Shown: in pieces, positions 1-14,821 of the stretch
How positions within the stretch are numbered: the stretch's first letter is position 1
How the letters are laid out: each line of letters starts with the position of its first letter
UHGV virus genome: UHGV-0338003
Source of the DNA: a virus
Strand: one strand, 5' to 3'
DNA length: 16,255 bases
Program-made: the position numbers and the translations under genes
The notes under the pieces: generated by a model
Told to the model about the DNA's origin: nothing
Seen by the model: the letters and a program-made list of their open reading frames with translations, nothing else
Database searches by the model: none

Positions 1-155
1 TTCATGGATCAGTAAGCGTAACTCTGGTAGGCTCACTCTGCTTTTGCGCTAAAGCAGTGGGCCGTGGTTCGCTTGTGACCAGTAAGCATGAGCGAATGGC
101 TGGCAGGTGCTACCAACACCCACCAGCCGCCCATTTTCACAGCAGGAAACCGCCA

Positions 156-383
156 TTACTGGCAGCGTCTGAATTTATTCCCGTACCCGCCGTTATCCTT
201 CGCCAGACCCGCCAGAACTAACTGAGTCAGTATTAACTGGCACCGGGCTTCGCTTACTCCGGTAGTTCTCGTCATCATGCGTGGCGTTACCCACTTGTCA
301 GCAGGTAAGAAATGAAGGACTGCGGCGGCGGTTTCTGTCATATCTTGCTGTTTTAGCATGTCTTTTTCCCTTCTGGTTAACAT
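156..383 (-). CDS. hypothetical small protein, possibly winged-helix DNA-binding; first ORF after the Q-dependent terminator
   Basis: 75-aa ORF with ATG at 383 and TAA at 156-158. Helix-turn-helix-like stretch (TGVSEARCQLILTQLVLAGLA). Weak RBS and no recognised family. Confidence 0.3.
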   Translation of the reverse strand: MLTRREKDMLKQQDMTETAAAVLHFLPADKWVTPRMMTRTTGVSEARCQLILTQLVLAGLAKDNGGYGNKFRRCQ

Positions 384-480
384 GACATACCAATAACTCT
401 TGTCTAAAAAGCCAGCAAGATAAAAAGTCAGTATTCACGACCACCAGCGTGTTTACTGTACTGCACCAAGTTTACAGGTA

Positions 481-505
481 CAAAAAACCCGCTCAGTGGC
501 GGGTT
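481..505 (-). terminator. intrinsic terminator downstream of Q (tR'-like)
   Basis: On the minus strand: stem ACCCGC, loop CACTGA, stem GCGGGT, followed by a run of six T. Lies in the 228-bp gap downstream of the Q gene. Confidence 0.55.
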
Positions 506-551
506 CTTAAATCTTATCAACGGTAGACATACAAAGCCCATCGTTGGGAAA

Positions 552-580
552 ATCTTATCCATGTTTTTTGAAAAATGCAA
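552..580 (-). promoter_or_regulatory. candidate late promoter (PR'-like) between Q and the terminator
   Basis: Minus strand reads TTGCAT (-35, 580-575), a 17-nt spacer, then TAAGAT (-10, 557-552). Position matches lambdoid PR'/qut upstream of tR'. Sequence-only prediction. Confidence 0.3.
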
Positions 581-611
581 GCATCATGTCGCCATCTTCG
601 GCGAAAATCAT

Positions 612-1370
612 TTATTTTGTCACTTTTCTCAATTGTGTCTCTGCATATGCTTCTTCCTGCCAGCACTTTGTAACCAGTTTATCAATGACATCTGCATATC
701 CTTTGTACCACTGATAATCCGTCAGATCCGGTACCAGCTTCTGGACATGATGCCGCGCCAGTGTGGTTGGTAAACGGCTAAACCGGTTTCCATTGCAACG
801 CCCACAAATCTTATAAACAGGCGTGCCATGAAGCCGGGTCCTTTTTTCATCCAGGACAATACCTTTACCCTTACACCCTCTGCACGCTGTGCTGACTTCT
901 CCCTTACCATGACAATGCTGACATAGTTCCTTCACCCACTCCTCCTTGATAACAGATTCACCGCTTCTGGAGTGTTTCACCACTTCGCGCAATACATTAT
1001 GAAATCCAGTACCTGCACAATGCTCACAGCGAGCCTTACTTGCCGCAGACCTGGAATAATCAGCAAAGGCAAAATTCACAAGGTAAGGGATGATCTGTAA
1101 CCGGGTTTCTTCACTCAATTTATTCAATGTCGGGTTATCCAGTGCCATCGCGTAATTGAGCAGACCTTCAATCGCAAACTGAGGATCCTGAACACCAACT
1201 TTTGCCAGGAATAAGGCAAAACCCAGTGGTGCTTTCGACTGCACCATCCCCTGCGCAGCCATCACATCCGTAATCGTTAAACCACCAGAGCCTGTCGCCG
1301 GTGCGTCATCGCTCAATTTTGGAGATTTTGGGGAGTAATATTTTGGTAAGGCTTCAAGGTTCATGCTCAT
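612..1370 (-). CDS. antitermination protein Q (long, zinc-finger-containing lambdoid Q family)
   Basis: 252 aa with four CxxCxGxG-like motifs (CEHCAGTG, CQHCHGKG, CRGCKGKG, CGRCNGN). Last gene of the early operon, directly upstream of the candidate PR'/terminator. Resembles Qin-type Q of E. coli prophages, from memory. Confidence 0.6.
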   Translation of the reverse strand: MSMNLEALPKYYSPKSPKLSDDAPATGSGGLTITDVMAAQGMVQSKAPLGFALFLAKVGVQDPQFAIEGLLNYAMALDNPTLNKLSEETRLQIIPYLVNFAFADYSRSAASKARCEHCAGTGFHNVLREVVKHSRSGESVIKEEWVKELCQHCHGKGEVSTACRGCKGKGIVLDEKRTRLHGTPVYKICGRCNGNRFSRLPTTLARHHVQKLVPDLTDYQWYKGYADVIDKLVTKCWQEEAYAETQLRKVTK

Positions 1371-1377
1371 TCTCCAC

Positions 1378-2373
1378 TTACGCCAGTACGCCTATTGCCA
1401 GCGCACGATCGATAAAACGAAATATCAGCTCCAGCTGGGAGCCATACTTCTCTTCAAATGCCACGGTATCCGCATGCAGCTCGTCGTGATGCTTTCTGCA
1501 CAAAGGCAACACAAAGAGGTCATGCGCTTTTGTACCCATTCCCCCCTGACCGTGGCCTATCAGGTGGTGGGGATCATCAGCGGGCTTTCCACAACATGCA
1601 CACGGCTGTGTCTTAACCCAGCGCGTGTACTTTTCATTAACCCAGCGGCGACGTTTTGGGCGTAACATAAAAGACTCCGGCGACTCCGGATCCACTTTCA
1701 GCGCCAGCACCTTTTTTGCCTTATCCTGGATGATGCTGGTGGCAGGAACCGAAGGCACAAGGTCACTTTCCCGGGTGACAGACGGCACAACAGGCTTTGG
1801 TAATCTCAGTGCCTTACGGGCTGCACTTTCCGGTAAGGCATCCGCCAGGTCATTACGAATCAGCCACCAGCACAGTTCCGGCATTGTCACAACGTGACTA
1901 TCATCAAAACCGAGATCCCGACGCACAACAGACAACACCCAGCGGGCACAGTTATCCGTTGCCATTGATTCCAGCCGTTCCGTGAACTGATCGCGCAGCT
2001 GGTTATCACAGTGCCAGCACAGACGGATTGCGCCCGGAGCGTGTCGCATTGTGGTCATGTTCTCGCTGTGCCAGTCGGAATGAGGCCACTGGCAGCCTTT
2101 TTCACGAAGTAACCAGCTTTCAAGACATTCCACGCCACCAGCACGACGGATCACTGCCTCATTGCGGAACACGGCCCGAACGGCAGGATCATCCGCCAGC
2201 GGTTGTGATGCCGCCGGAACGGCACCACTGGAGAAAGATGAATAACGCTCCGGCTCAGGCTCCAGCAGGACACGCCCCTGCATAAACAGGGGCATCAGCT
2301 CTGAACCGGGTCTGAACAATACGATCCCCATACGCGGGGCTATTTCAGGGGTCAGTAGTGCTCTCACGGTCAC
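1378..2373 (-). CDS. DUF968-like prophage protein (YdfU-like) with C-terminal Cys/His-rich motif
   Basis: 331 aa. C-terminus has CACCGKP...HHLIGHGQGG...CRKHHDELH, typical of DUF968 proteins found just upstream of Q in E. coli prophages. Start overlaps the KilA-N stop. Confidence 0.55.
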   Translation of the reverse strand: MTVRALLTPEIAPRMGIVLFRPGSELMPLFMQGRVLLEPEPERYSSFSSGAVPAASQPLADDPAVRAVFRNEAVIRRAGGVECLESWLLREKGCQWPHSDWHSENMTTMRHAPGAIRLCWHCDNQLRDQFTERLESMATDNCARWVLSVVRRDLGFDDSHVVTMPELCWWLIRNDLADALPESAARKALRLPKPVVPSVTRESDLVPSVPATSIIQDKAKKVLALKVDPESPESFMLRPKRRRWVNEKYTRWVKTQPCACCGKPADDPHHLIGHGQGGMGTKAHDLFVLPLCRKHHDELHADTVAFEEKYGSQLELIFRFIDRALAIGVLA

Positions 2374-2374
2374 C

Positions 2375-3184
2375 TCAATGAACGGTATCGAGCAGCTTTA
2401 ACAGCTCAGGGAATCGGGATTCGAAGAAATGCGGCTGCGTCTCACGCGGATTTGCGGGACTGGTAATGTTCTTGCCGAACATGCAACCTTTCGCTGTCAG
2501 CGACCAGAATTTTTTGATGTTGTTAATCGCGGTACGGCTGTATCGTTCGCGTTGTTCAACGATCCCCAGCTTCGCCATCTGGTGATATGCCTGATTAGCC
2601 GTCAGGCGGATACCATACTGCTTCAGCAGTGCACTCAGCGACAGCGTCGGGCGGCTTGAGCCATCAGGCGCGTCAGCAGGTGCATCAATGGCATAGCGCG
2701 GTGCCAGATTCGGTAAGCCAACAGCCTCCTGGAGTTTCTGACAGGCCCCAAGCACTGAAGAGTTAGACAGGTTTAACTCCCTGCGCATAAAGTCCAGCAG
2801 AATCACTCCAGCCTGCATCTTGTCAGCAGCCTGCCCGGATAATTTTTCCGGTACGCTGGTTACCATATCGAAAGTACGGATCACCTTCAGATGGAATGAC
2901 GGGCTGATCCACATTGCATAGGCATACACCAGTTCTTTGCAGACATACGTCCCCTGGTTATTTCCGCCATTAATGACGCTAACTGGTTGATTTTGTTCCA
3001 GAGGCGGAATTCCACCCTCGGTGAAAAGTTGTTCAATCAATTCACAGGTTTGCTTATTGGAGAGCCAGTATTTCGGGCGGTTTTTTTGTTCTCCCCCGGC
3101 TGCCCTGTGCAGATCGTTCAGGCTGTAACGCCCATAAGCATCACGACGAACTTCAATACCATCAATGACCATCAGATTATTCAT
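2375..3184 (-). CDS. KilA-N domain protein (antirepressor-like)
   Basis: 269 aa. N-terminus VIDGIEVRRDAYGRYSLNDLHRAAGG...KNRPKYWL matches the KilA-N signature. Confidence 0.7.
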   Translation of the reverse strand: MNNLMVIDGIEVRRDAYGRYSLNDLHRAAGGEQKNRPKYWLSNKQTCELIEQLFTEGGIPPLEQNQPVSVINGGNNQGTYVCKELVYAYAMWISPSFHLKVIRTFDMVTSVPEKLSGQAADKMQAGVILLDFMRRELNLSNSSVLGACQKLQEAVGLPNLAPRYAIDAPADAPDGSSRPTLSLSALLKQYGIRLTANQAYHQMAKLGIVEQRERYSRTAINNIKKFWSLTAKGCMFGKNITSPANPRETQPHFFESRFPELLKLLDTVH

Positions 3185-3203
3185 ACTTCGTTTCTCCTCT
3201 TAA

Positions 3204-3593
3204 TCAGGCGGCTGCACCCGCCGTTTTCTCGTACTTACTGATAGTGATCTCGACCTTCCCTCCCGGGATAACCGGTCCCCACTCCACCAGCATTCTTTTC
3301 ACCTGACTGTCGTCTTCCCACACACCCGCGTGGGTCAGGGCGTCAAACAGCGCCTTGTTATAGTTGTCCAGATCGCGGATCCGGTTATCCGGAGGAAACA
3401 ACACGATCTCCACTGAAGCAGGTGCCGACGTTGGTTTCGGCAGACGACGTAACTGCTCAACTATTGCTGCGCACGCCGCGCTCTGGAATTTTCGCCCCGC
3501 CGCGCTTATCAGACTCTTACCAGCAAACGCCCCTTTGTTGGGGTGTCGCCAGTACGTGTTCACGCTGGGCGGGAAAGGCAAGATCAGCTTCAT
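3204..3593 (-). CDS. rusA: RusA-family Holliday junction resolvase
   Basis: 129 aa with PPSVNTYW and RDLDNYNKALFDALTHAGVWEDDSQV motifs characteristic of RusA. Typical nin-region gene. Confidence 0.85.
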   Translation of the reverse strand: MKLILPFPPSVNTYWRHPNKGAFAGKSLISAAGRKFQSAACAAIVEQLRRLPKPTSAPASVEIVLFPPDNRIRDLDNYNKALFDALTHAGVWEDDSQVKRMLVEWGPVIPGGKVEITISKYEKTAGAAA

Positions 3594-3595
3594 AC

Positions 3596-3916
3596 TTACA
3601 GGCCTCTCTCATGTAACCAGTGGGCTGCACGCAGCCTGGCGTTTTCCTCACCGGCAAGCAGTGTGCGGATAATCCCGACCGCCTCGCTGTCGTCGTCCTT
3701 CACCGCGGTATGAAGCGTTATCCCCCGGGCCACGCCACGCTTTATCGTGATGACGCCTTTTTTCTCCAGTGCACGAAGATGCTCTACCGCTGCATTCACT
3801 GAACGGTATCCCAGCATGGTTGCCACCTCCTGATTGGTTGGCGGAAAGCCACGCTCTTTCTGGTAAGAAATCAGCATATCCAGCACCTGCTGCTGGCATT
3901 GAGTTAACGTCGTCAT
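3596..3916 (-). CDS. LexA N-terminal DNA-binding-domain-like protein (no peptidase domain)
   Basis: 106 aa. Residues 1-70 parallel the LexA winged-helix domain (QQQVLDMLISYQKERGFPPTNQEVATMLGYRSVNAAVEHLRALEKKGVI...RGVARGI). No S24 Ser/Lys peptidase region. Confidence 0.6.
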   Translation of the reverse strand: MTTLTQCQQQVLDMLISYQKERGFPPTNQEVATMLGYRSVNAAVEHLRALEKKGVITIKRGVARGITLHTAVKDDDSEAVGIIRTLLAGEENARLRAAHWLHERGL

Positions 3917-4566
3917 GCCGCCATCTCCCTGACCAGTTTTTCCGCCTGCTGGCGAACCTGCACCAGAAAGGCTTCACCACATGCCTCAAGTTCATCGCGC
4001 CCGATGTAGCTGATTGCCGGTCCCTTCCAGGTCTTGTCGAAAACAGCAATAGCACCAGCGAAGAAAGCGCCTGTCGGCACCTGCTTCTCATCCTTCGGGA
4101 TAAACCAGGCAGGCAGTTCAAAACCAATACGCCCGCGAATAAAAGCAATATGGTCCGCATCTTCCGGCCACCACACTTCGCTGGTGGCAGCTTTGATCAG
4201 GAAAACATAGCGCCCGCCCTTATCACGCATGGCACTGGCATGTTTCATGATGTAACGCATGCCGGTGATGTATTGCCCCTCATGCTGACTGGCGCGGCTG
4301 TATGGGGGATTACCAAAGGCAGCACCTTTAAGCTCCGCAAGACGTTCTGACCAGTCATGCGCCAGCGCGTTGTCTTCCGCCGTGTAATACGCGGCACATT
4401 TGGCGTTATCACCGTCAGTGAACAGATCCAGAACAAACGGACCAAACAGGGTGTTAATTCCCCAGAAAATGTTATCCGGCGTGCGCCACTGATCTCCCAC
4501 TTCCTTCAGTTCATGGGCTGGTTTATTCCGCAGTTCCACCAGCGCCTGGCAATATTTATTACTCAT
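3913..4566 (-). CDS. phage-type DNA N6-adenine methyltransferase (Dam family)
   Basis: Contains the FGNPPYS catalytic motif. Preferred start is the ATG at 4566-4564, which overlaps the upstream stop as TAATG. The longer ORF reaching 4599 would run into the upstream gene. Confidence 0.75.
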   Translation of the reverse strand: MSNKYCQALVELRNKPAHELKEVGDQWRTPDNIFWGINTLFGPFVLDLFTDGDNAKCAAYYTAEDNALAHDWSERLAELKGAAFGNPPYSRASQHEGQYITGMRYIMKHASAMRDKGGRYVFLIKAATSEVWWPEDADHIAFIRGRIGFELPAWFIPKDEKQVPTGAFFAGAIAVFDKTWKGPAISYIGRDELEACGEAFLVQVRQQAEKLVREMAA

Positions 4567-5060
4567 TAAGCCCCCACGTAATTCCCTGACAGATACCACT
4601 CTTCACCCGATGCAGCGTGCTTGCTGCTTTTCCGTAAGCACCGCTCACGACGCGCCAGAAAATTGTTTCGTTCTGGCTGGGAGTGGCTTTCACGGAATGC
4701 CGCCATCCACACGGTTGCAGCACGACGGTATAAGCCCCTTGACTCCAGTTCTTCCGCCTGGCGGGTCAGGCACAAAATCACCCGGGGATCGTTAGTGCCG
4801 ACATAGAAATTGCGCGCAGGTCTGGTTTCACGAACTGGTTGTGGTTCCGGCTCCTGCGCTCTCTCAGTCAGGCGCGGGAAATGTCTGCGTGTATCCCCTT
4901 CACAACGGTGAGCCACACGCCCACTCTGACGTAACTTGCTTGCTGACTGCAGAACGCGCTGCCGTGAGTAACCAGCAAAAGCATCCGCAATGTCTCCGGA
5001 AGTACACCCCGGATGGGCTTCAATGAATTTCTGAACGTCATTTAACAGACTCATGATCAC
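4566..5060 (-). CDS. PerC-like transcriptional regulator with N-terminal winged-helix extension
   Basis: 164 aa. C-terminal AEELESRGLYRRAATVWMAAF resembles the PerC/Pch signature (LE.KGLWRRAA.W). ATGA overlap with the replication gene stop. Confidence 0.5.
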   Translation of the reverse strand: MIMSLLNDVQKFIEAHPGCTSGDIADAFAGYSRQRVLQSASKLRQSGRVAHRCEGDTRRHFPRLTERAQEPEPQPVRETRPARNFYVGTNDPRVILCLTRQAEELESRGLYRRAATVWMAAFRESHSQPERNNFLARRERCLRKSSKHAASGEEWYLSGNYVGA

Positions 5061-5998
5061 CCCCTGAATCCTGCCGGGATCTGGCTGTAGTCCACGTTGT
5101 CGTAACTGGATTTGAAGTACGGGTCTTCGCGTTTTTCAGTGTACGTGCTTACGGACGGCGATAAGCGCAGGGAAAGCTCATCCCATTTTTCCCGCAGCTT
5201 CGACGGGCTGAGCACGTTACGGCACCAGAACGGATCGCGGCTGACGCGGCTGTACATCTCGCAGATTTGTTTGTGAGTACGACCATCCTGCACACACATC
5301 AGGCGAATTTCGTTTGCCCAGGCTGTCCAGTTCGGTTCTTTGGGACGAACCACCTCGCCGTCACATTCGGCGGCCTGCTCGTACAGGGCGATGATTTTTT
5401 TCCAGAGCCACTGTGCGCAGGTCAAATCATCCTGCGTTCCCCACTGGCGCTTTTTAGGGCTGAATACAACCGCATCAGGATGGCGAGTTAAAAAATCCTG
5501 TTCATCCGTCTGCGTGTCCGGTTGCGAAGCGTCCGGACGAGAAGTTTTTTTATCTGACGGATCATGTTTTGATTTTACTGACGGATCCCCGCCAGATTCT
5601 GACGGGTGAAAACCCGCTTTTTTGCCAGATTTCGACGCATCAAATTTTGACGGGTCAGATTTTGATGCGTCAGATTTTGACGGGTCAGAATCTGACAGTT
5701 GAGAAAATGCCGCTGCCTGAAGCTTCGCAACGTTAAGCTGATAAACATTCGACGCATTGCGGTTACCCTGGCGACGCGCCTTACGCGTTAACCAGCCTTC
5801 TGCTTCCAGCCGTGCGATAGCCGTTCTGACGGTACTCATCCCCGCGCCAATCTGGCGGGCAATGGTTTCAATTGATGGCCAGCACACACCTTCGTCATTA
5901 CTGAAATCAGCCAGGCGGGCCATAATTGCCACGCTGGATAATTTCATGCCTGATGCAGCGCAACCATCCCATACATAGCCGGTTAATTTAGTGCTCAT
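5057..5998 (-). CDS. phage replication initiation protein (O-like)
   Basis: 313 aa. N-terminal HTH (SIETIARQIGAGMSTVRTAIARLEAEGWL), a central low-complexity SKSD/DPSK repeat linker encoded by DNA iterons, and a C-terminal domain as in lambdoid replisome organisers. Confidence 0.6.
   Translation of the reverse strand: MSTKLTGYVWDGCAASGMKLSSVAIMARLADFSNDEGVCWPSIETIARQIGAGMSTVRTAIARLEAEGWLTRKARRQGNRNASNVYQLNVAKLQAAAFSQLSDSDPSKSDASKSDPSKFDASKSGKKAGFHPSESGGDPSVKSKHDPSDKKTSRPDASQPDTQTDEQDFLTRHPDAVVFSPKKRQWGTQDDLTCAQWLWKKIIALYEQAAECDGEVVRPKEPNWTAWANEIRLMCVQDGRTHKQICEMYSRVSRDPFWCRNVLSPSKLREKWDELSLRLSPSVSTYTEKREDPYFKSSYDNVDYSQIPAGFRG
5550..5700. repeat. iteron array (candidate origin of replication) inside the replication initiator gene
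   Basis: About eight tandem copies of a roughly 15-bp unit such as CAGATTTTGACGGGT (also CAGATTCTGACGGGT, CAGATTTTGATGCGT, TACTGACGGATC), flanked by T-runs. Same layout as lambda ori inside O. Confidence 0.5.
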
Positions 5999-6007
5999 GA
6001 CCGACCT

Positions 6008-6346
6008 CTATTTCCCTGAATTTACGACGAAACTGTTCGAGCGGGCTGAAGCACTCATGCTCATAGCCTTCGCGGAGGTAGATAACCCGTTGTGTTTCCG
6101 GCTCCCAACGAATGACTCTGACGGGCACTCCGTAGTGATCTTTGAACCAGCGGTTAACTTGTCGCAAAGGACTGTCTCCTTCTGCCGGTTGAAATCACCC
6201 ACAGCCCACTCTGCAAAGCTGTGGGTTACAATTTCCCTGTCACCTGGTACATTTACTGCATAGCAATACTCCACCTTCGCTTTTCCACCCGGTACAGGAA
6301 GCGCAATCAGTTGCGAGCGACGGTAGTGTGTTGTTAAACTGTTCAT
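6008..6346 (-). CDS. hypothetical protein between the CII-like and replication genes, with a probable frame break
   Basis: ATG at 6346 overlaps the CII-like stop. The first 50 or so residues look protein-like, then the frame turns low-complexity, while a second minus frame over about 6003-6190 is protein-like ([42 protein letters not shown]) but has no ATG. Confidence 0.3.
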
Positions 6347-6894
6347 GCGTTAGTTTCTCCACAGTCACGACACGCCACGGCGCCCGGAGCTGCACACTCG
6401 CGGGCGTCATTACTTTCTGAAATGCAAAAAATTTTGTAGACCAGTGCTGCATGCTCCTGCAGCTTCGAAATTGAGAGGTACAGCTCGTCGTTAATTGCTG
6501 TCTTCTCATGCGGTTCCACTACACCGTCTTCAATTGCTGAACGAATCTGTTTTGAATAACTGCCGATCTGTTCAATGACTTCCAGCAGGCGCTGGTTAAT
6601 ATCGGCGTTGTCCACATCCTCGACGTCAGGAAGAGACACAAAGACGCCATTTGCAGACTGCGCCACAGCGTCAGCAATGAAGTGAGTTCCACCAGCACGT
6701 TGCAAAATCATTGCCCATCCCAGCGGGAAAATCTGATCGCCATCGGCACGAAGGCGGTTAAATAATGCGTTCTCTGTTACATCCAGCCAGTCAGCAGCTT
6801 CAGCGTACCCCCCCGGCAACGCTGCGATAGTTTTTCTGACAGCTTTCACGTACCACTCAGGCTGTTTTTCTACTTTCCAGTGATGCTTACCCAC
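6343..6894 (-). CDS. CII-like regulatory protein (phage CII/CP76-type, YdaT-like)
   Basis: 183 aa, immediately downstream of cro with overlapping start and stop. Central [22 protein letters not shown] resembles CII-family regulators. Assignment from position and memory only. Confidence 0.45.
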
Positions 6895-7147
6895 GGTTCA
6901 CCTCCTGTTCCTGTGGTTTAAACCCATTCTGATTTTGGCTAGATTGAAAACGTGCCGGATAAAGAATCTGCATTTCGCTGACTTCACCCTTAAAAAAATT
7001 GGCTAAACGTTCTGCAAGCTCGATAGATGGAATCTGCTCCAGCCTCTCAATACGACTCAACGTCGCTGGATTGACTTGAACACCCGCAGCAACATGCTGC
7101 AAAGTGAAACCATGCGCCTTACGCACATTTCGTAATGGTGATTGCAT
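6887..7147 (-). CDS. Cro-like HTH (XRE-family) transcriptional regulator
   Basis: 86 aa with HTH GFTLQHVAAGVQVNPATLSRIERLEQIPS. GGAGGA RBS upstream. Divergent from the cI gene across an operator region. Confidence 0.7.
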   Translation of the reverse strand: MQSPLRNVRKAHGFTLQHVAAGVQVNPATLSRIERLEQIPSIELAERLANFFKGEVSEMQILYPARFQSSQNQNGFKPQEQEVNRG

Positions 7148-7161
7148 ATGTCCTCCAAATA

Positions 7162-7224
7162 TTGCGCGTTATGCATGTTATTTCACGCAATTATTTTGCG
7201 CAAGTTGATTTGCTTATCACGCAA
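7162..7224. promoter_or_regulatory. OR-like operator region with three sites between the divergent cro-like and cI genes
   Basis: Three partially palindromic sites at 24-bp spacing: TTGCGCGTTATGCAT (7162-7176), CGCAATTATTTTGCG (7186-7200), TTGCTTATCACGCAA (7210-7224). Divergent promoters are implied by gene arrangement. Confidence 0.55.
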
Positions 7225-7244
7225 TAAAGAAATGTAATAAACGC

Positions 7245-7937
7245 ATGAACATAGGAAACCGAGTCAGACAACTTCGCCAAGCGAAGAACATGAAAATCGC
7301 CGATCTCGCTGAAGCAATAGGAGTAGATGCGGCGAACATCTCGCGCTTAGAAACGGGTAAGCAAAAACAATTTACCGAACAAACACTGAGTAATATTGCC
7401 AAGAGCTTAGGTGTTGATATTGCTGATCTCTTTACCTCTGCCCACAAAAGTAATACTGTATATAAAAACAGTAATAATGAGGATGTTGCGCAGGTGAAGG
7501 ATGTGTTCCGTATTGAAATGCTGGATATCAGTGCCAGTGCGGGAAATGGCCTTATCCAGGGCGGTGATGTCATTGATGTGATTCATGCCATCGAATACAG
7601 AACTGATAATGCTGTATCAATGTTCGGCGGACGACCAGCCAATCACATCAAAGTTATCAACGTTCGTGGGGACAGTATGTGTCCAACCATTGAGCCAGGA
7701 GATCTCATCTTCGTTGATGTCAGCATCAATCAGTTTGATGGTGATGGTATATATGTCTTTGGTTTTGATGACAAAATATACGTTAAAAGACTTCAAATGA
7801 TTCCTGACAAACTGCTGGTGATTTCTGATAACCAGATTTACCGTGAATGGGGAATTACTAGCGAAAACGAACACCGATTCATGGTCTTTGGAAAGGTCTT
7901 AATCAGTCAGTCGCAAACCCTTAAGAGACATAATTAA
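7245..7937 (+). CDS. CI-type prophage repressor (HTH plus S24 LexA-like autopeptidase)
   Basis: 230 aa. N-terminal HTH (MKIADLAEAIGVDAANISRLETGKQ) and a C-terminal S24 domain with GDSM serine motif and downstream KR. No obvious SD before the ATG, so possibly leaderless. Confidence 0.85.
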   Translation: MNIGNRVRQLRQAKNMKIADLAEAIGVDAANISRLETGKQKQFTEQTLSNIAKSLGVDIADLFTSAHKSNTVYKNSNNEDVAQVKDVFRIEMLDISASAGNGLIQGGDVIDVIHAIEYRTDNAVSMFGGRPANHIKVINVRGDSMCPTIEPGDLIFVDVSINQFDGDGIYVFGFDDKIYVKRLQMIPDKLLVISDNQIYREWGITSENEHRFMVFGKVLISQSQTLKRHN

Positions 7938-12279: not shown

Positions 12280-12486
12280 ATGCTGAACCTCGATTGTGTT
12301 CCTATCTCAACTTATTGCAAAGAAACTGGCGAAACTCCTGAAGCAATAAACAAACGTGTACAGCGCGGTGTTTGGCGTGAAGGTGTTCAGGTTTTAAAGG
12401 TTGAAGGCGTTAAGGAGAGGTGGATTGATCTTAGTGAGGTTGCAAAATGGGCCAGACAAAACTGCTCAAACTACCGCGCGGCGTAA
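12280..12486 (+). CDS. xis: excisionase-like small DNA-binding protein (Xis)
   Basis: 68 aa from the ATG at 12280, with GGAGA 5 nt upstream. Immediately upstream of and overlapping int. Basic protein with Trp residues typical of small Xis proteins. Called mainly from position. Confidence 0.45.
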   Translation: MLNLDCVPISTYCKETGETPEAINKRVQRGVWREGVQVLKVEGVKERWIDLSEVAKWARQNCSNYRAA

Positions 12487-13619
12487 CAATCAGGAAACAC
12501 CGCCAGGGAGAAACGATCAATATAACTTTCACCTACAAAGGAGTTAGATGTCGTGAGCCGCTTTCCAATCTGGAAGTAACACCAAAGAACATTAAATACG
12601 CCGAGCGTACACTCGGCGAAATCCATAATAAGATCGAAAGGGGAACATTCATTTATGCAGAATATTTTCCCCGTTCTGCTCGTTTGAAAATTTTTGGTAA
12701 TGCTGCTGCAGGCAAAACGGTAAAGATGTACCTGGACGAATATCTTGAAATCTGCGAAACAAGAAAACTTTCACCCTCTACGATTGGTGGCTATAAAAAA
12801 TGCCGTAGTGCGTTAGCCTCACTTCACATTTGCCCTGCAAGTGAATTAACACCAGCAACCCTGAAAGCGTGGATTCAAAATCAGAAAACGACCTTAAAAA
12901 CAATTCGCAACCAGTTATCTTTCCTGCGGTCAGCACTTGATGAAGCCGTGACCGATGGGGTACTTCAAATTAACCCCGTATCGTTAGTAACAGCTTCGCG
13001 CTACCAAAGTGATAAGTCAGAAGCAGAAAGCAGCTACGTAGTTGATCCGCTATCACCAGCAGAAGTTGATGCATTACTAGCAGCAGCCGGAAACAAACAA
13101 TGGGAAAATCTGTTCCGGTTCGCTATACATACAGGCCTGCGTAGTTCTGAATTATGTGCCCTTCGATGGCGTGATATCGACTTTGTTGGAAAAACTGCCC
13201 ATGTCCAGAGCGCAAGTGTTGTCGGTGTTATCAAAGGGACAAAGACAAAAGCAGGTACTCGGAAAGTTGAACTGACAGAAGAGGCAATGTTGGCGCTGAT
13301 AAATCAGAAGCCATTTACATTCATGAAGGATACTACTGTCTTTGAAGATCCAAAGACCAATAAGCCTTGGGCAAGTGCTGATGCAATCAGGAAAAAAGCA
13401 TGGGTGCCAACATTGCGAAAAGCAGGTATTCGTTACAGAAATCCATATCAAACTAGGCATACATTCGCCACCCGCCATATCAGCCGGGGAGCAAACCTGT
13501 TTTGGCTTGCAGCTCAAATGGGGCATAAAGGGCCGGAAATGTTATTTCGTCATTATGGTTCATATTTAAAGGAATATGACGGTAATACGACCAGCAATAT
13601 CACAAAAAAAGCCACTTAA
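12447..13619 (+). CDS. int: tyrosine recombinase, lambda-family phage integrase
   Basis: 390 aa. C-terminal catalytic signature: R in AIHTGLRSSEL, HTFATRHISRG, and RHYGSY with the nucleophile Tyr. Adjacent to the att-like tmRNA fragment. Confidence 0.9.
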   Translation: MGQTKLLKLPRGVTIRKHRQGETINITFTYKGVRCREPLSNLEVTPKNIKYAERTLGEIHNKIERGTFIYAEYFPRSARLKIFGNAAAGKTVKMYLDEYLEICETRKLSPSTIGGYKKCRSALASLHICPASELTPATLKAWIQNQKTTLKTIRNQLSFLRSALDEAVTDGVLQINPVSLVTASRYQSDKSEAESSYVVDPLSPAEVDALLAAAGNKQWENLFRFAIHTGLRSSELCALRWRDIDFVGKTAHVQSASVVGVIKGTKTKAGTRKVELTEEAMLALINQKPFTFMKDTTVFEDPKTNKPWASADAIRKKAWVPTLRKAGIRYRNPYQTRHTFATRHISRGANLFWLAAQMGHKGPEMLFRHYGSYLKEYDGNTTSNITKKAT

Positions 13620-13632: not shown

Positions 13633-14016
13633 TTAGGAGGCTCTCGATTTAAGCATTTCCGTACACTTAGCAAAGAGCCTCTCAGTTGTTAGAATCGCAA
13701 CTTCAGACTGTTTAGAAGTGACCGATTGATCAAGTCGATAGTCTGCAACAATCCTCTGAGCTTTAAGTTGACTCAGGATAAAACTAATCCCTTTTAGATA
13801 TCTAGCTTCATATACTTCACTTCCTCTTGAAGCATCGCCCTGCAAATAATTGATTAGCCCCTGATGACTGTCTTTCGGCCCGTTTACCATACAAGGCAAG
13901 ACATGATGGTAAGCGCCATAGTAGGATCTTGCTATAGCATTTCGATAGCCGATTTCGTCATTACGTTGATGACAGTCTTTTGCAAAACCGAGAAAATCTT
14001 GACTATTAACCGGCAT
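13633..14016 (-). CDS. HEPN-like domain protein (candidate effector or toxin)
   Basis: 127 aa from the ATG at 14016, with GGAGGG 6 nt upstream. N-terminal helix AKDCHQRNDEIGYRNAIARSYYGAYHHV and a later R-x4-DY (QRIVADYRL) fit the general HEPN pattern. Overlaps the upstream gene by 11 bp. Confidence 0.45.
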   Translation of the reverse strand: MPVNSQDFLGFAKDCHQRNDEIGYRNAIARSYYGAYHHVLPCMVNGPKDSHQGLINYLQGDASRGSEVYEARYLKGISFILSQLKAQRIVADYRLDQSVTSKQSEVAILTTERLFAKCTEMLKSRAS

Positions 14017-14821
14017 GTGCAACCCTCCGGGTAATCAGACCTAATTCGGAGATAGCATTCTGCTCAATATGTGTGTCTTTACATTCAAACCAAACAGCAA
14101 AATCTTTACCGACTAAACAATCGTGCTCAGCCATTGAAAAAGCAAGCTCAATATTCATATCAGCGATTTGTTCAGCATCAGAAGACTTTGTCATGAATAC
14201 AATCGCATTCACTTTCTCTTCCGAAATATTATAAAAACGCATTCCCGAAAGATGAACCTTCTGAGAATCCATGACATTGGCTACATTATTGAAAATAAGT
14301 TCATATTCTAAACCAGAAAGATCGGCACGTTGCTTAAAGGATTCGACCTGGGAAACAACTTCATCAAAATTGTTGTCCATTTTTTCAGGCTCCTTATCTC
14401 CGAACAATTTAGAGTATGACTGGAAATACTTCTCCGCCAACGCCATCTTCCCCATAAAGAGGGAGTTTTCATAAGCTTGAAGATAAATAAACGGGGATAT
14501 GAAGCTTTCAGCAAGCTTAATGCTTGTTTCAAAGCTTTTCTTCAACGTACCGTAATCTGACAAGAAAACAAGAAAATTCTTTGCAACAACCTCATTATGG
14601 CATACCTGCAAGGAACGCTCAAAGAAGCCTATCGCCTCATTCACTTGGCCATGTGCACCATAGACCAACGCTAAAAGATAGTCCTCAGAGACAGGATCTC
14701 TAAGTGCTTCAATCTCACGTAACATCCTTCTAAAGCTAAAGTCATCAATCCTCACTCCATCTTTGAGGTATTTAGTTAGCCGCGCGCTAATAACTGATGC
14801 TTTTTTTGCTGGCTGCAACAT
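14006..14821 (-). CDS. hypothetical protein, upstream partner of the HEPN-like gene
   Basis: 271 aa. ATG at 14821. Predicted mostly helical. No nucleotidyltransferase motif (GS...D.D) and no recognised family. Confidence 0.5.
   Translation of the reverse strand: MLQPAKKASVISARLTKYLKDGVRIDDFSFRRMLREIEALRDPVSEDYLLALVYGAHGQVNEAIGFFERSLQVCHNEVVAKNFLVFLSDYGTLKKSFETSIKLAESFISPFIYLQAYENSLFMGKMALAEKYFQSYSKLFGDKEPEKMDNNFDEVVSQVESFKQRADLSGLEYELIFNNVANVMDSQKVHLSGMRFYNISEEKVNAIVFMTKSSDAEQIADMNIELAFSMAEHDCLVGKDFAVWFECKDTHIEQNAISELGLITRRVAHAG

Follow-up and report, generated by a model that had tools for sequence, protein, structure and literature searches.

A lambdoid prophage of Escherichia coli carries, in its early-right (pR) operon, after the replication and Dam genes and ahead of RusA-Q, a functional and selected gene for a stand-alone LexA-type DNA-binding protein of 106 amino acids. 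The protein has the LexA winged-helix domain and lacks the S24 protease, and a family-specific tail takes the place of the LexA dimerization/protease domain. The gene is accessory, correctly annotated and unstudied. It lies in the window (the whole stretch of 16,255 nucleotides that was analyzed), which is the early region of the prophage and matches E. coli strain 1500 (NZ_CP040269.1) at 100% identity. The gene, its parts and its translation signal are as follows.

3596..3916, minus strand: LexA-like gene, encoding a stand-alone LexA-type DNA-binding protein of 106 amino acids (open reading frame list, PF01726, PHROG 362, PGAP and pN/pS).
3710..3916, minus strand: winged helix-turn-helix domain, codons 1-69 (AlphaFold, Foldseek match 3jso_B, pN/pS 0.016).
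3761..3802, minus strand: recognition helix SVNAAVEHLRALEK, codons 39-52 (alignment with E. coli LexA; S39, N41, A42 and E45 kept, V44 for E44).
3599..3709, minus strand: family-specific tail, codons 70-106, with predicted helices 70-88 and 93-103 (AlphaFold block pLDDT 81-87, conservation).
3925..3929, minus strand: Shine-Dalgarno sequence GGGAG of the LexA-like gene, read from the sequence, 8 nt 5′ of the ATG and within the end of the Dam gene.

The open reading frame list gives 106 codons from an ATG start to a TAA stop at 3596-3598. The ATG overlaps the TGA of the Dam gene (ATGA, 3913-3916) and the TAA stands 2 nt ahead of the RusA ATG (3593), an arrangement which implies that the LexA-like gene is translationally coupled in the pR operon.

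An earlier note on this DNA had described the product, by eye, as the LexA N-terminal winged-helix domain without an S24 region, and had proposed a profile search for the LexA DNA-binding domain. The description is confirmed. Residues 1-65 match PF01726 (LexA_DNA_bind) across all 65 model positions with an E value of 2.8e-19 and 69.1 bits, compared with a gathering cut-off of 23.7, which is far beyond chance. In a phmmer search the PDB match is the DNA-binding domain of E. coli LexA, 1lea (E 6.7e-16, about 50% identity over residues 2-69). An AlphaFold model of the monomer (pLDDT 83.5, pTM 0.56) shows three helices at residues 6-22, 28-35 and 40-52 and a wing of two strands (56-58 and 66-68), after which come the two helices of the tail. 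The first Foldseek match of this predicted model, which is not a solved structure, is the LexA-DNA complex 3jso_B, with an rmsd of 1.0 Å over 68 columns and 50% identity.

The protein is not a LexA repressor proper. Against TIGR00498, the equivalog model for true LexA, it scores 70.8 bits where the cut-off is 110.95, and it aligns only to model positions 1-91 of 203. The C-terminal S24 domain and its Ser/Lys dyad are absent; Peptidase_S24 (PF00717) gave no Pfam match in the protein even at E values up to 10, and because RusA follows directly 3′ of the gene there is no space for a degraded S24 remnant.

While the finding is real and correctly described, it is already in public annotation, and the earlier note's presentation of it as a discovery does not hold: RefSeq, Pfam and PHROGs all annotate the gene in this way. 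The PGAP product name is ‘LexA family transcriptional regulator’ (WP_045171905.1), and PHROG 362, ‘transcriptional repressor’, matches the protein over its full length (E 1.6e-58), with residues 1-106 aligned to positions 1-104 of the 106-position profile. By tblastn, 50 deposited phages carry the gene at 95-99% identity, including SfV (orf42, ‘unknown’), SfII, SfIV, mEp460 (‘LexA DNA binding domain protein’) and cdtI as well as Stx2a, Stx2c and Stx2k phages. By megablast, 2,233 of 5,426 complete E. coli genomes (41%) carry the gene, with as many as four copies in one genome. Stand-alone LexA-domain proteins are also common among predicted viral structures, where many of the viral ones are 65-150 amino acids long and are named LexA DNA-binding-domain proteins. 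A literature search outside most subscription journals found no study testing the lambdoid LexA-like family. Membership of a defense system was considered and rejected, since the PADLOC search returned only a weak generic helix-turn-helix match.

The exhaustive HMMER search also returned many proteins of 140-350 amino acids with two tandem LexA DNA-binding domains (P0130, P0131, P0147, P0150, P0152, P0155, P0160 and others). These may be single-chain pseudo-dimers in which a dimerization domain is unneeded.

Pfam searches place the LexA-like gene in the following gene order, given here in the direction of transcription of the operon and followed by the divergent repressor gene.

6887..7147, minus strand: cro.
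6343..6894, minus strand: CII/YmfL-like gene.
Between the CII/YmfL-like and replication genes, minus strand: small DUF4222 gene.
5057..5998, minus strand: replication protein gene.
4566..5060, minus strand: PerC/YfdN-like gene.
3913..4599, minus strand: phage Dam-type N6-adenine methyltransferase, 5′ neighbor of the LexA-like gene (PF05869, E 1.1e-45; sequence).
3596..3916, minus strand: LexA-like gene.
3204..3593, minus strand: RusA Holliday-junction resolvase, 3′ neighbor of the LexA-like gene (PF05866, synteny).
2375..3184, minus strand: KilA-N protein gene.
1378..2373, minus strand: DUF968/HNH gene.
612..1370, minus strand: Q antiterminator.
7245..7937, plus strand: CI-type prophage repressor, divergent from the operon (HTH_3 and Peptidase_S24).

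The repressor of the prophage had been taken to be a CI of the SOS-cleavable type with an S24 domain, and it does carry this domain (E 6e-19). Judging from the architecture of lambdoid phages, the LexA-like protein would be made after the repressor is lifted or during infection. The immunity region is not that of the e14 element of K-12, an identification ruled out by the repressor of e14, YmfK, which is of another kind, and by the lack of an SOS box at the corresponding place in e14.

Several other features of the window were noted. Within the replication-protein gene, 5634-5696 holds tandem palindromic repeats, GACGCATCAAATTTTGAC / GTCAGATTTTGATGCGTC and then GTCAGATTTTGAC / GTCAGAATCTGAC, which look like the origin iterons of an O-type initiator. 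Two uncharacterized genes, of 271 amino acids (weak TPR match) and 129 amino acids, occupy 13633-14821 on the minus strand. They are situated between the prophage integrase (12447..13619) and approximately 15,280, where similarity to the other top-matching genomes stops, a location typical of cargo genes. Beyond it, at approximately 15,484, begins a second integrase gene that differs from the first, and no tRNA gene was found in the window.

Selection on the LexA-like gene was assessed with 138 copies from the fetched loci, representing 79 distinct alleles. Mean pS is 0.099 and mean pN 0.0075, so that pN/pS is 0.076 for the whole gene, 0.016 in codons 1-69 and 0.19 in the tail. The gene is under strong purifying selection, which contradicts the proposal that it is a functionless passenger, namely the relic of a once full-length LexA-like gene, truncated and hitch-hiking in the mosaic nin region. 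We find such a relic scarcely credible. Full-length relatives at 40-50% identity in the exhaustive HMMER search retain both the length and the tail, and position as well is kept down to 45% identity; the start codon, Shine-Dalgarno sequence and translational coupling are intact, and 41% of complete E. coli genomes carry the gene. The relic proposal does gain from the fact that the gene is dispensable. Among 60 IMG/VR loci with this cI, the gene is missing from 7 of the 59 that share both the cI and the SOS box described below, and two of these seven (L100 and L141) proceed from Dam directly to RusA.

Three distant homologues (45-50% identity) could be placed on contigs (L163-L167). Each is within a lambdoid prophage, overlaps the stop codon of an upstream replication or methylase gene, and is closely followed on its 3′ side by RusA, an antirepressor-like gene, DUF968 and Q. 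L167 departs from this order in that it lacks the antirepressor-like gene and has a gene of 158 amino acids, on the opposite strand, between the homologue and RusA. The slot before RusA is thus kept even at this level of divergence.

The surrounding nin region varies by the presence or absence of small cassettes (L100, L141, L109, L088 and others), where Dam, LexA-like and PerC genes come and go independently between the replication gene and RusA. Dam is one such independent cassette, since among related loci either dam or the LexA-like gene can occur where the other is missing. These variants are natural deletion controls for genetics.

The tail has no relatives in Pfam or the PDB: no Pfam family covers it, and a search of the PDB with a tail profile gave noise only. 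Its hydrophobic pattern, approximately EAVxxIRxLLAxExxARxRAxxWLxxRG, is conserved to 40-50% identity, and A97 and L101 are invariant. The simplest reading is that the tail is a dimerization module that would assemble into a helical bundle, because a hairpin of 35 residues in which some ten hydrophobic positions are conserved would probably not fold stably by itself. Dimerization by the tail matters for any mechanism, since repression of sulA by the isolated LexA DNA-binding domain depends on fusion to a dimerizing partner, the principle behind LexA two-hybrid systems (PMC7595419).

HMMER carries the LexA alignment to residue 90 and pairs ..IIRTLLAGEEN.. with the LexA cleavage region ..VGRVAAGEPL.., placing A88-G89 opposite Ala84-Gly85 of LexA. 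Residue 88 is alanine in 77 of the 79 close alleles and G89 is invariant. A retained LexA cleavage site (LLAGEE compared with VAAGEP) is nevertheless improbable, because the Ala-Gly pair is missing from most distant family members and AlphaFold predicts the segment to be helical rather than the strand-loop of LexA. The same alignment might speak for a role directed at proteins, in which the linker and tail would act as a pseudo-substrate or trans-substrate of S24 proteases (LexA, UmuD or CI) or would engage a phage protein such as the adjacent RusA, thereby modulating induction without a regulon of their own. Intermolecular cleavage by LexA and CI is established, reportedly through the work of Kim and Little in 1993 (cited in PMC8951638), and the adjacency to RusA is conserved. 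We regard this role as very improbable, given the distribution and predicted structure of the Ala-Gly segment and given that the strongest constraint falls on codons 1-69, as a DNA-binding function predicts.

Residues listed as contacting DNA in LexA are S39, N41, A42, E44 and E45 (PMC3091678). The LexA-like protein has S39, N41, A42, V44 and E45 at these positions and thus keeps four of the five. Among the 79 alleles the four kept residues are invariant and codons 39-48 show no amino-acid change, the sole change in the recognition helix being A49V in one allele. The S-x-N-A-A-x-E-H-L helix is of the type seen in E. coli-like LexA hits and is far closer to that type than to other known LexA classes. 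We take it to be the E. coli, CTGT-reading type.

Position 44 was tabulated for all proteins returned by the searches. Valine is present in 117 of 123 close relatives, while 11 distant family members have F, A, T, L or Y in nine cases and E in two; glutamate is found in 14 of 23 long (LexA-length) hits and in 56 of 73 other LexA-domain hits. One acidic base-contact residue, Glu44, has evidently been given up across the family, and its loss points to altered specificity or affinity. Two outcomes both fit: specificity may have been retuned, as in the phage protein gp6 of GIL01, or affinity for the same box may have been raised by losing a negative charge beside the DNA. Binding of the LexA-like protein to canonical SOS boxes is, on this alignment, plausible but not assured.

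Retuning is the core of the main alternative, which we consider possible but less likely than not, and in which the protein is a regulator with a diverged operator. The captured LexA domain, with Glu44 lost and a new tail gained, would recognize a site peculiar to the phage and distinct from an SOS box. From there it would activate or repress genes of the phage, such as those near Q and the late region or those of the nin region, with no part played by the SOS regulon of the host. Not only is Glu44 replaced across the family, but recognition-helix positions 42-45 vary among its distant members, and a new dimerization module could shift the spacing of half-sites. There is also a precedent in gp6, which binds a site of its own and activates the late promoter P3 (PMC6182141). 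The kinship of the helix with the E. coli LexA type argues in the other direction, as does the gene block in which the protein is encoded, which has almost no intergenic DNA to hold an operator.

Candidate operators were sought directly, and two strong SOS boxes were found in or beside the window.

7454..7473, no strand assigned: near-consensus 20-bp SOS box TACTGTATATAAAAACAGTA, in the linker-coding part of cI about 210 nt past its start.
1478-1497 of locus L001, in a methylase gene on the minus strand: second strong SOS box TACTGTAAAAATAAACAGTG (gene orientation), score 22.7, 4 nt to the left of window position 1.

The cI box is the single perfect CTGT-N8-ACAG of the window and is identical to the E. 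coli umuDC operator. Its score of 26.5, by a heuristic rather than curated weight matrix built from E. coli sites, ranks with the best of the known sites. The box is present in 59 of the 60 IMG/VR loci with this cI, and variants of it occur in the repressor gene of mEp460 and in the cI of a prophage carrying a LexA-like homologue of 48% identity. No promoter-like site was found at the box on either strand. Host LexA is a candidate to bind there, as perhaps is the LexA-like protein, and the box may act as a LexA roadblock that ties cI output to the SOS state.

The second box covers codons 3-9 of a late-region DNA methyltransferase gene (L001 453..1505, minus strand), downstream of Q and upstream of the holin, and recurs in mEp460 (41021) and approximately 20 related loci. 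Placed where the late/lysis region opens, it is reminiscent of the late promoter of GIL01, which LexA represses. These SOS boxes within genes are a secondary result of the analysis, and the more unusual one. Separately, mEp460 (L002) has two adjacent strong SOS boxes at 23255-23302, 5′ of a phage DinI-like gene, which shows that this phage group carries several elements controlled by host LexA.

Across 80 carrier loci (1.27 Mb), 49 sites score at least 17, compared with 0-2 in shuffled sequences, and these represent three main sites common to related phages. An obligatory link between the gene and an SOS box was rejected. The cI box and the LexA-like gene occur together in 52 of the 60 loci, which are near-identical phages, and seven loci have the box only. 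Moreover, among the 19 related carrier loci whose flanks are complete, 10 lack any strong SOS box within 10 kb, and the three distant prophages have none within 8 kb. Because carriers and distant prophages can be free of boxes and boxes persist without the gene, the boxes are best explained as sites for host LexA that are available to the phage protein and do not define it. The many carrier phages without an SOS box nearby also favor the diverged-operator alternative.

Against that alternative, no conserved palindrome of a different kind emerged. An inverted-repeat scan of window positions 1-7300 gave only the replication-origin iterons and scattered short repeats. When CTGT-like half-sites were scanned at spacings of 0-20, ACTGT...ACAGT was prominent in distinct sites at spacing 8 only; the repeat hits at spacings 7, 18 and 19 have GC-rich spacers and trace to one or a few sequences common to related loci. 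Neither scan, therefore, yielded a convincing operator for the LexA-like protein beyond the spacing-8 boxes and the origin iterons.

With E. coli LexA (1lea and 3jso) the protein shares the extent of identity, the fold and the four contact residues given above. It differs in lacking the S24 dimerization/protease domain, the catalytic Ser/Lys pair and the conserved cleavage site, in having V44 for Glu44 and a two-helix tail, and in being encoded in a phage pR operon with no autoregulation from an SOS promoter. PHROG 362 and other stand-alone phage LexA_DNA_bind proteins have the same fold, and their names are annotation only.

The closest studied analogue is gp6 of GIL01, a tectivirus of Bacillus thuringiensis. 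This truncated LexA homologue of 66 amino acids acts at a late promoter that is repressed by host LexA together with gp7 (PMC6182141). Like the LexA-like protein, gp6 is a phage-encoded LexA DNA-binding domain without a protease and is expressed with early genes, and both phages carry boxes for host LexA (PMC6182141). However, gp6 is the domain alone whereas the LexA-like protein has 37 additional tail residues; gp6 derives from a Gram-positive LexA and has a different recognition helix; its phage is a linear plasmid-prophage without a CI repressor; and an activator role has been shown for gp6. By hhalign, gp6 matches the family with 96% probability and 33% identity over 64 columns, all in the domain, while BLASTP gave no pairwise alignment between gp6 and the LexA-like protein. 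The best relatives of the latter are E. coli-type LexA proteins. The lambdoid family is a capture independent of gp6, because the BLASTP match is absent and the likeness detected by hhalign is confined to the domain.

Non-cleavable LexA(Ind-) mutants repress SOS operators constitutively. A dimerizing, uncleavable LexA domain would act in the same way here, as do fusions of LexA(1-87) to a dimerizer (PMC7595419 for the fusions). However, those are laboratory constructs with the native helix, whereas here the dimerizer is natural and putative and residue 44 is different.

With regard to mechanism and ALTERNATIVES, we tentatively favor, at somewhat short of even chances, a RecA-insensitive, tail-dimerized LexA-type binder of CTGT-type palindromes that restores LexA-like occupancy. 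We infer the timing of expression, dimerization, the identity of the operator and all physiological effects in this scheme. Once the switch flips, transcription from pR would produce the LexA-like protein, and the tail would dimerize it in place of the LexA C-terminal domain. The dimer would then bind CTGT-type palindromes, either SOS boxes or close variants. With no S24 protease and no conserved Ala-Gly site, the protein could not be inactivated by RecA* as LexA or CI can. When host LexA is destroyed, the LexA-like dimer would restore occupancy of a kind that DNA damage does not abolish. It might do so at the SOS operators of the host, at genes of rival elements under LexA control and, in this prophage, at the cI box, where it might form a roadblock that stops renewed cI transcription and helps to lock in the lytic decision.

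The earlier note had suggested that an uncleavable LexA-like binder could occupy SOS boxes or phage operators, a reading that the data partly support. The binding of SOS boxes is favored by the LexA fold, the kept residues S39, N41, A42 and E45, the conserved helical tail and the very strong SOS boxes in the prophage. It is opposed by V44 in place of Glu44, the variable positions 42-45, the box-free carriers, and the loci that have the same immunity region and box without the gene. An extended version of this scheme seems unlikely. In it, the protein would be a RecA-proof LexA mimic, switched on at induction, that re-silences the host SOS regulon along with colicins and the LexA-controlled antirepressors of rival prophages and, in phages of the present type, blocks cI re-synthesis through the umuDC-type box, serving at once as a commitment latch and as a weapon between prophages.

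If the protein does bind SOS boxes, a large share of E. coli strains, including lysogens of Stx phages, carry a copy of the reading head of the SOS repressor, a copy that is insensitive to DNA damage and would appear exactly as LexA vanishes. Such a finding would change the view of SOS shut-off, prophage commitment, Stx phage induction and the rivalry of co-resident prophages. If a new operator is read, the family would be the second independent case, after GIL01 gp6, in which a phage has captured and retuned the LexA domain of its host.
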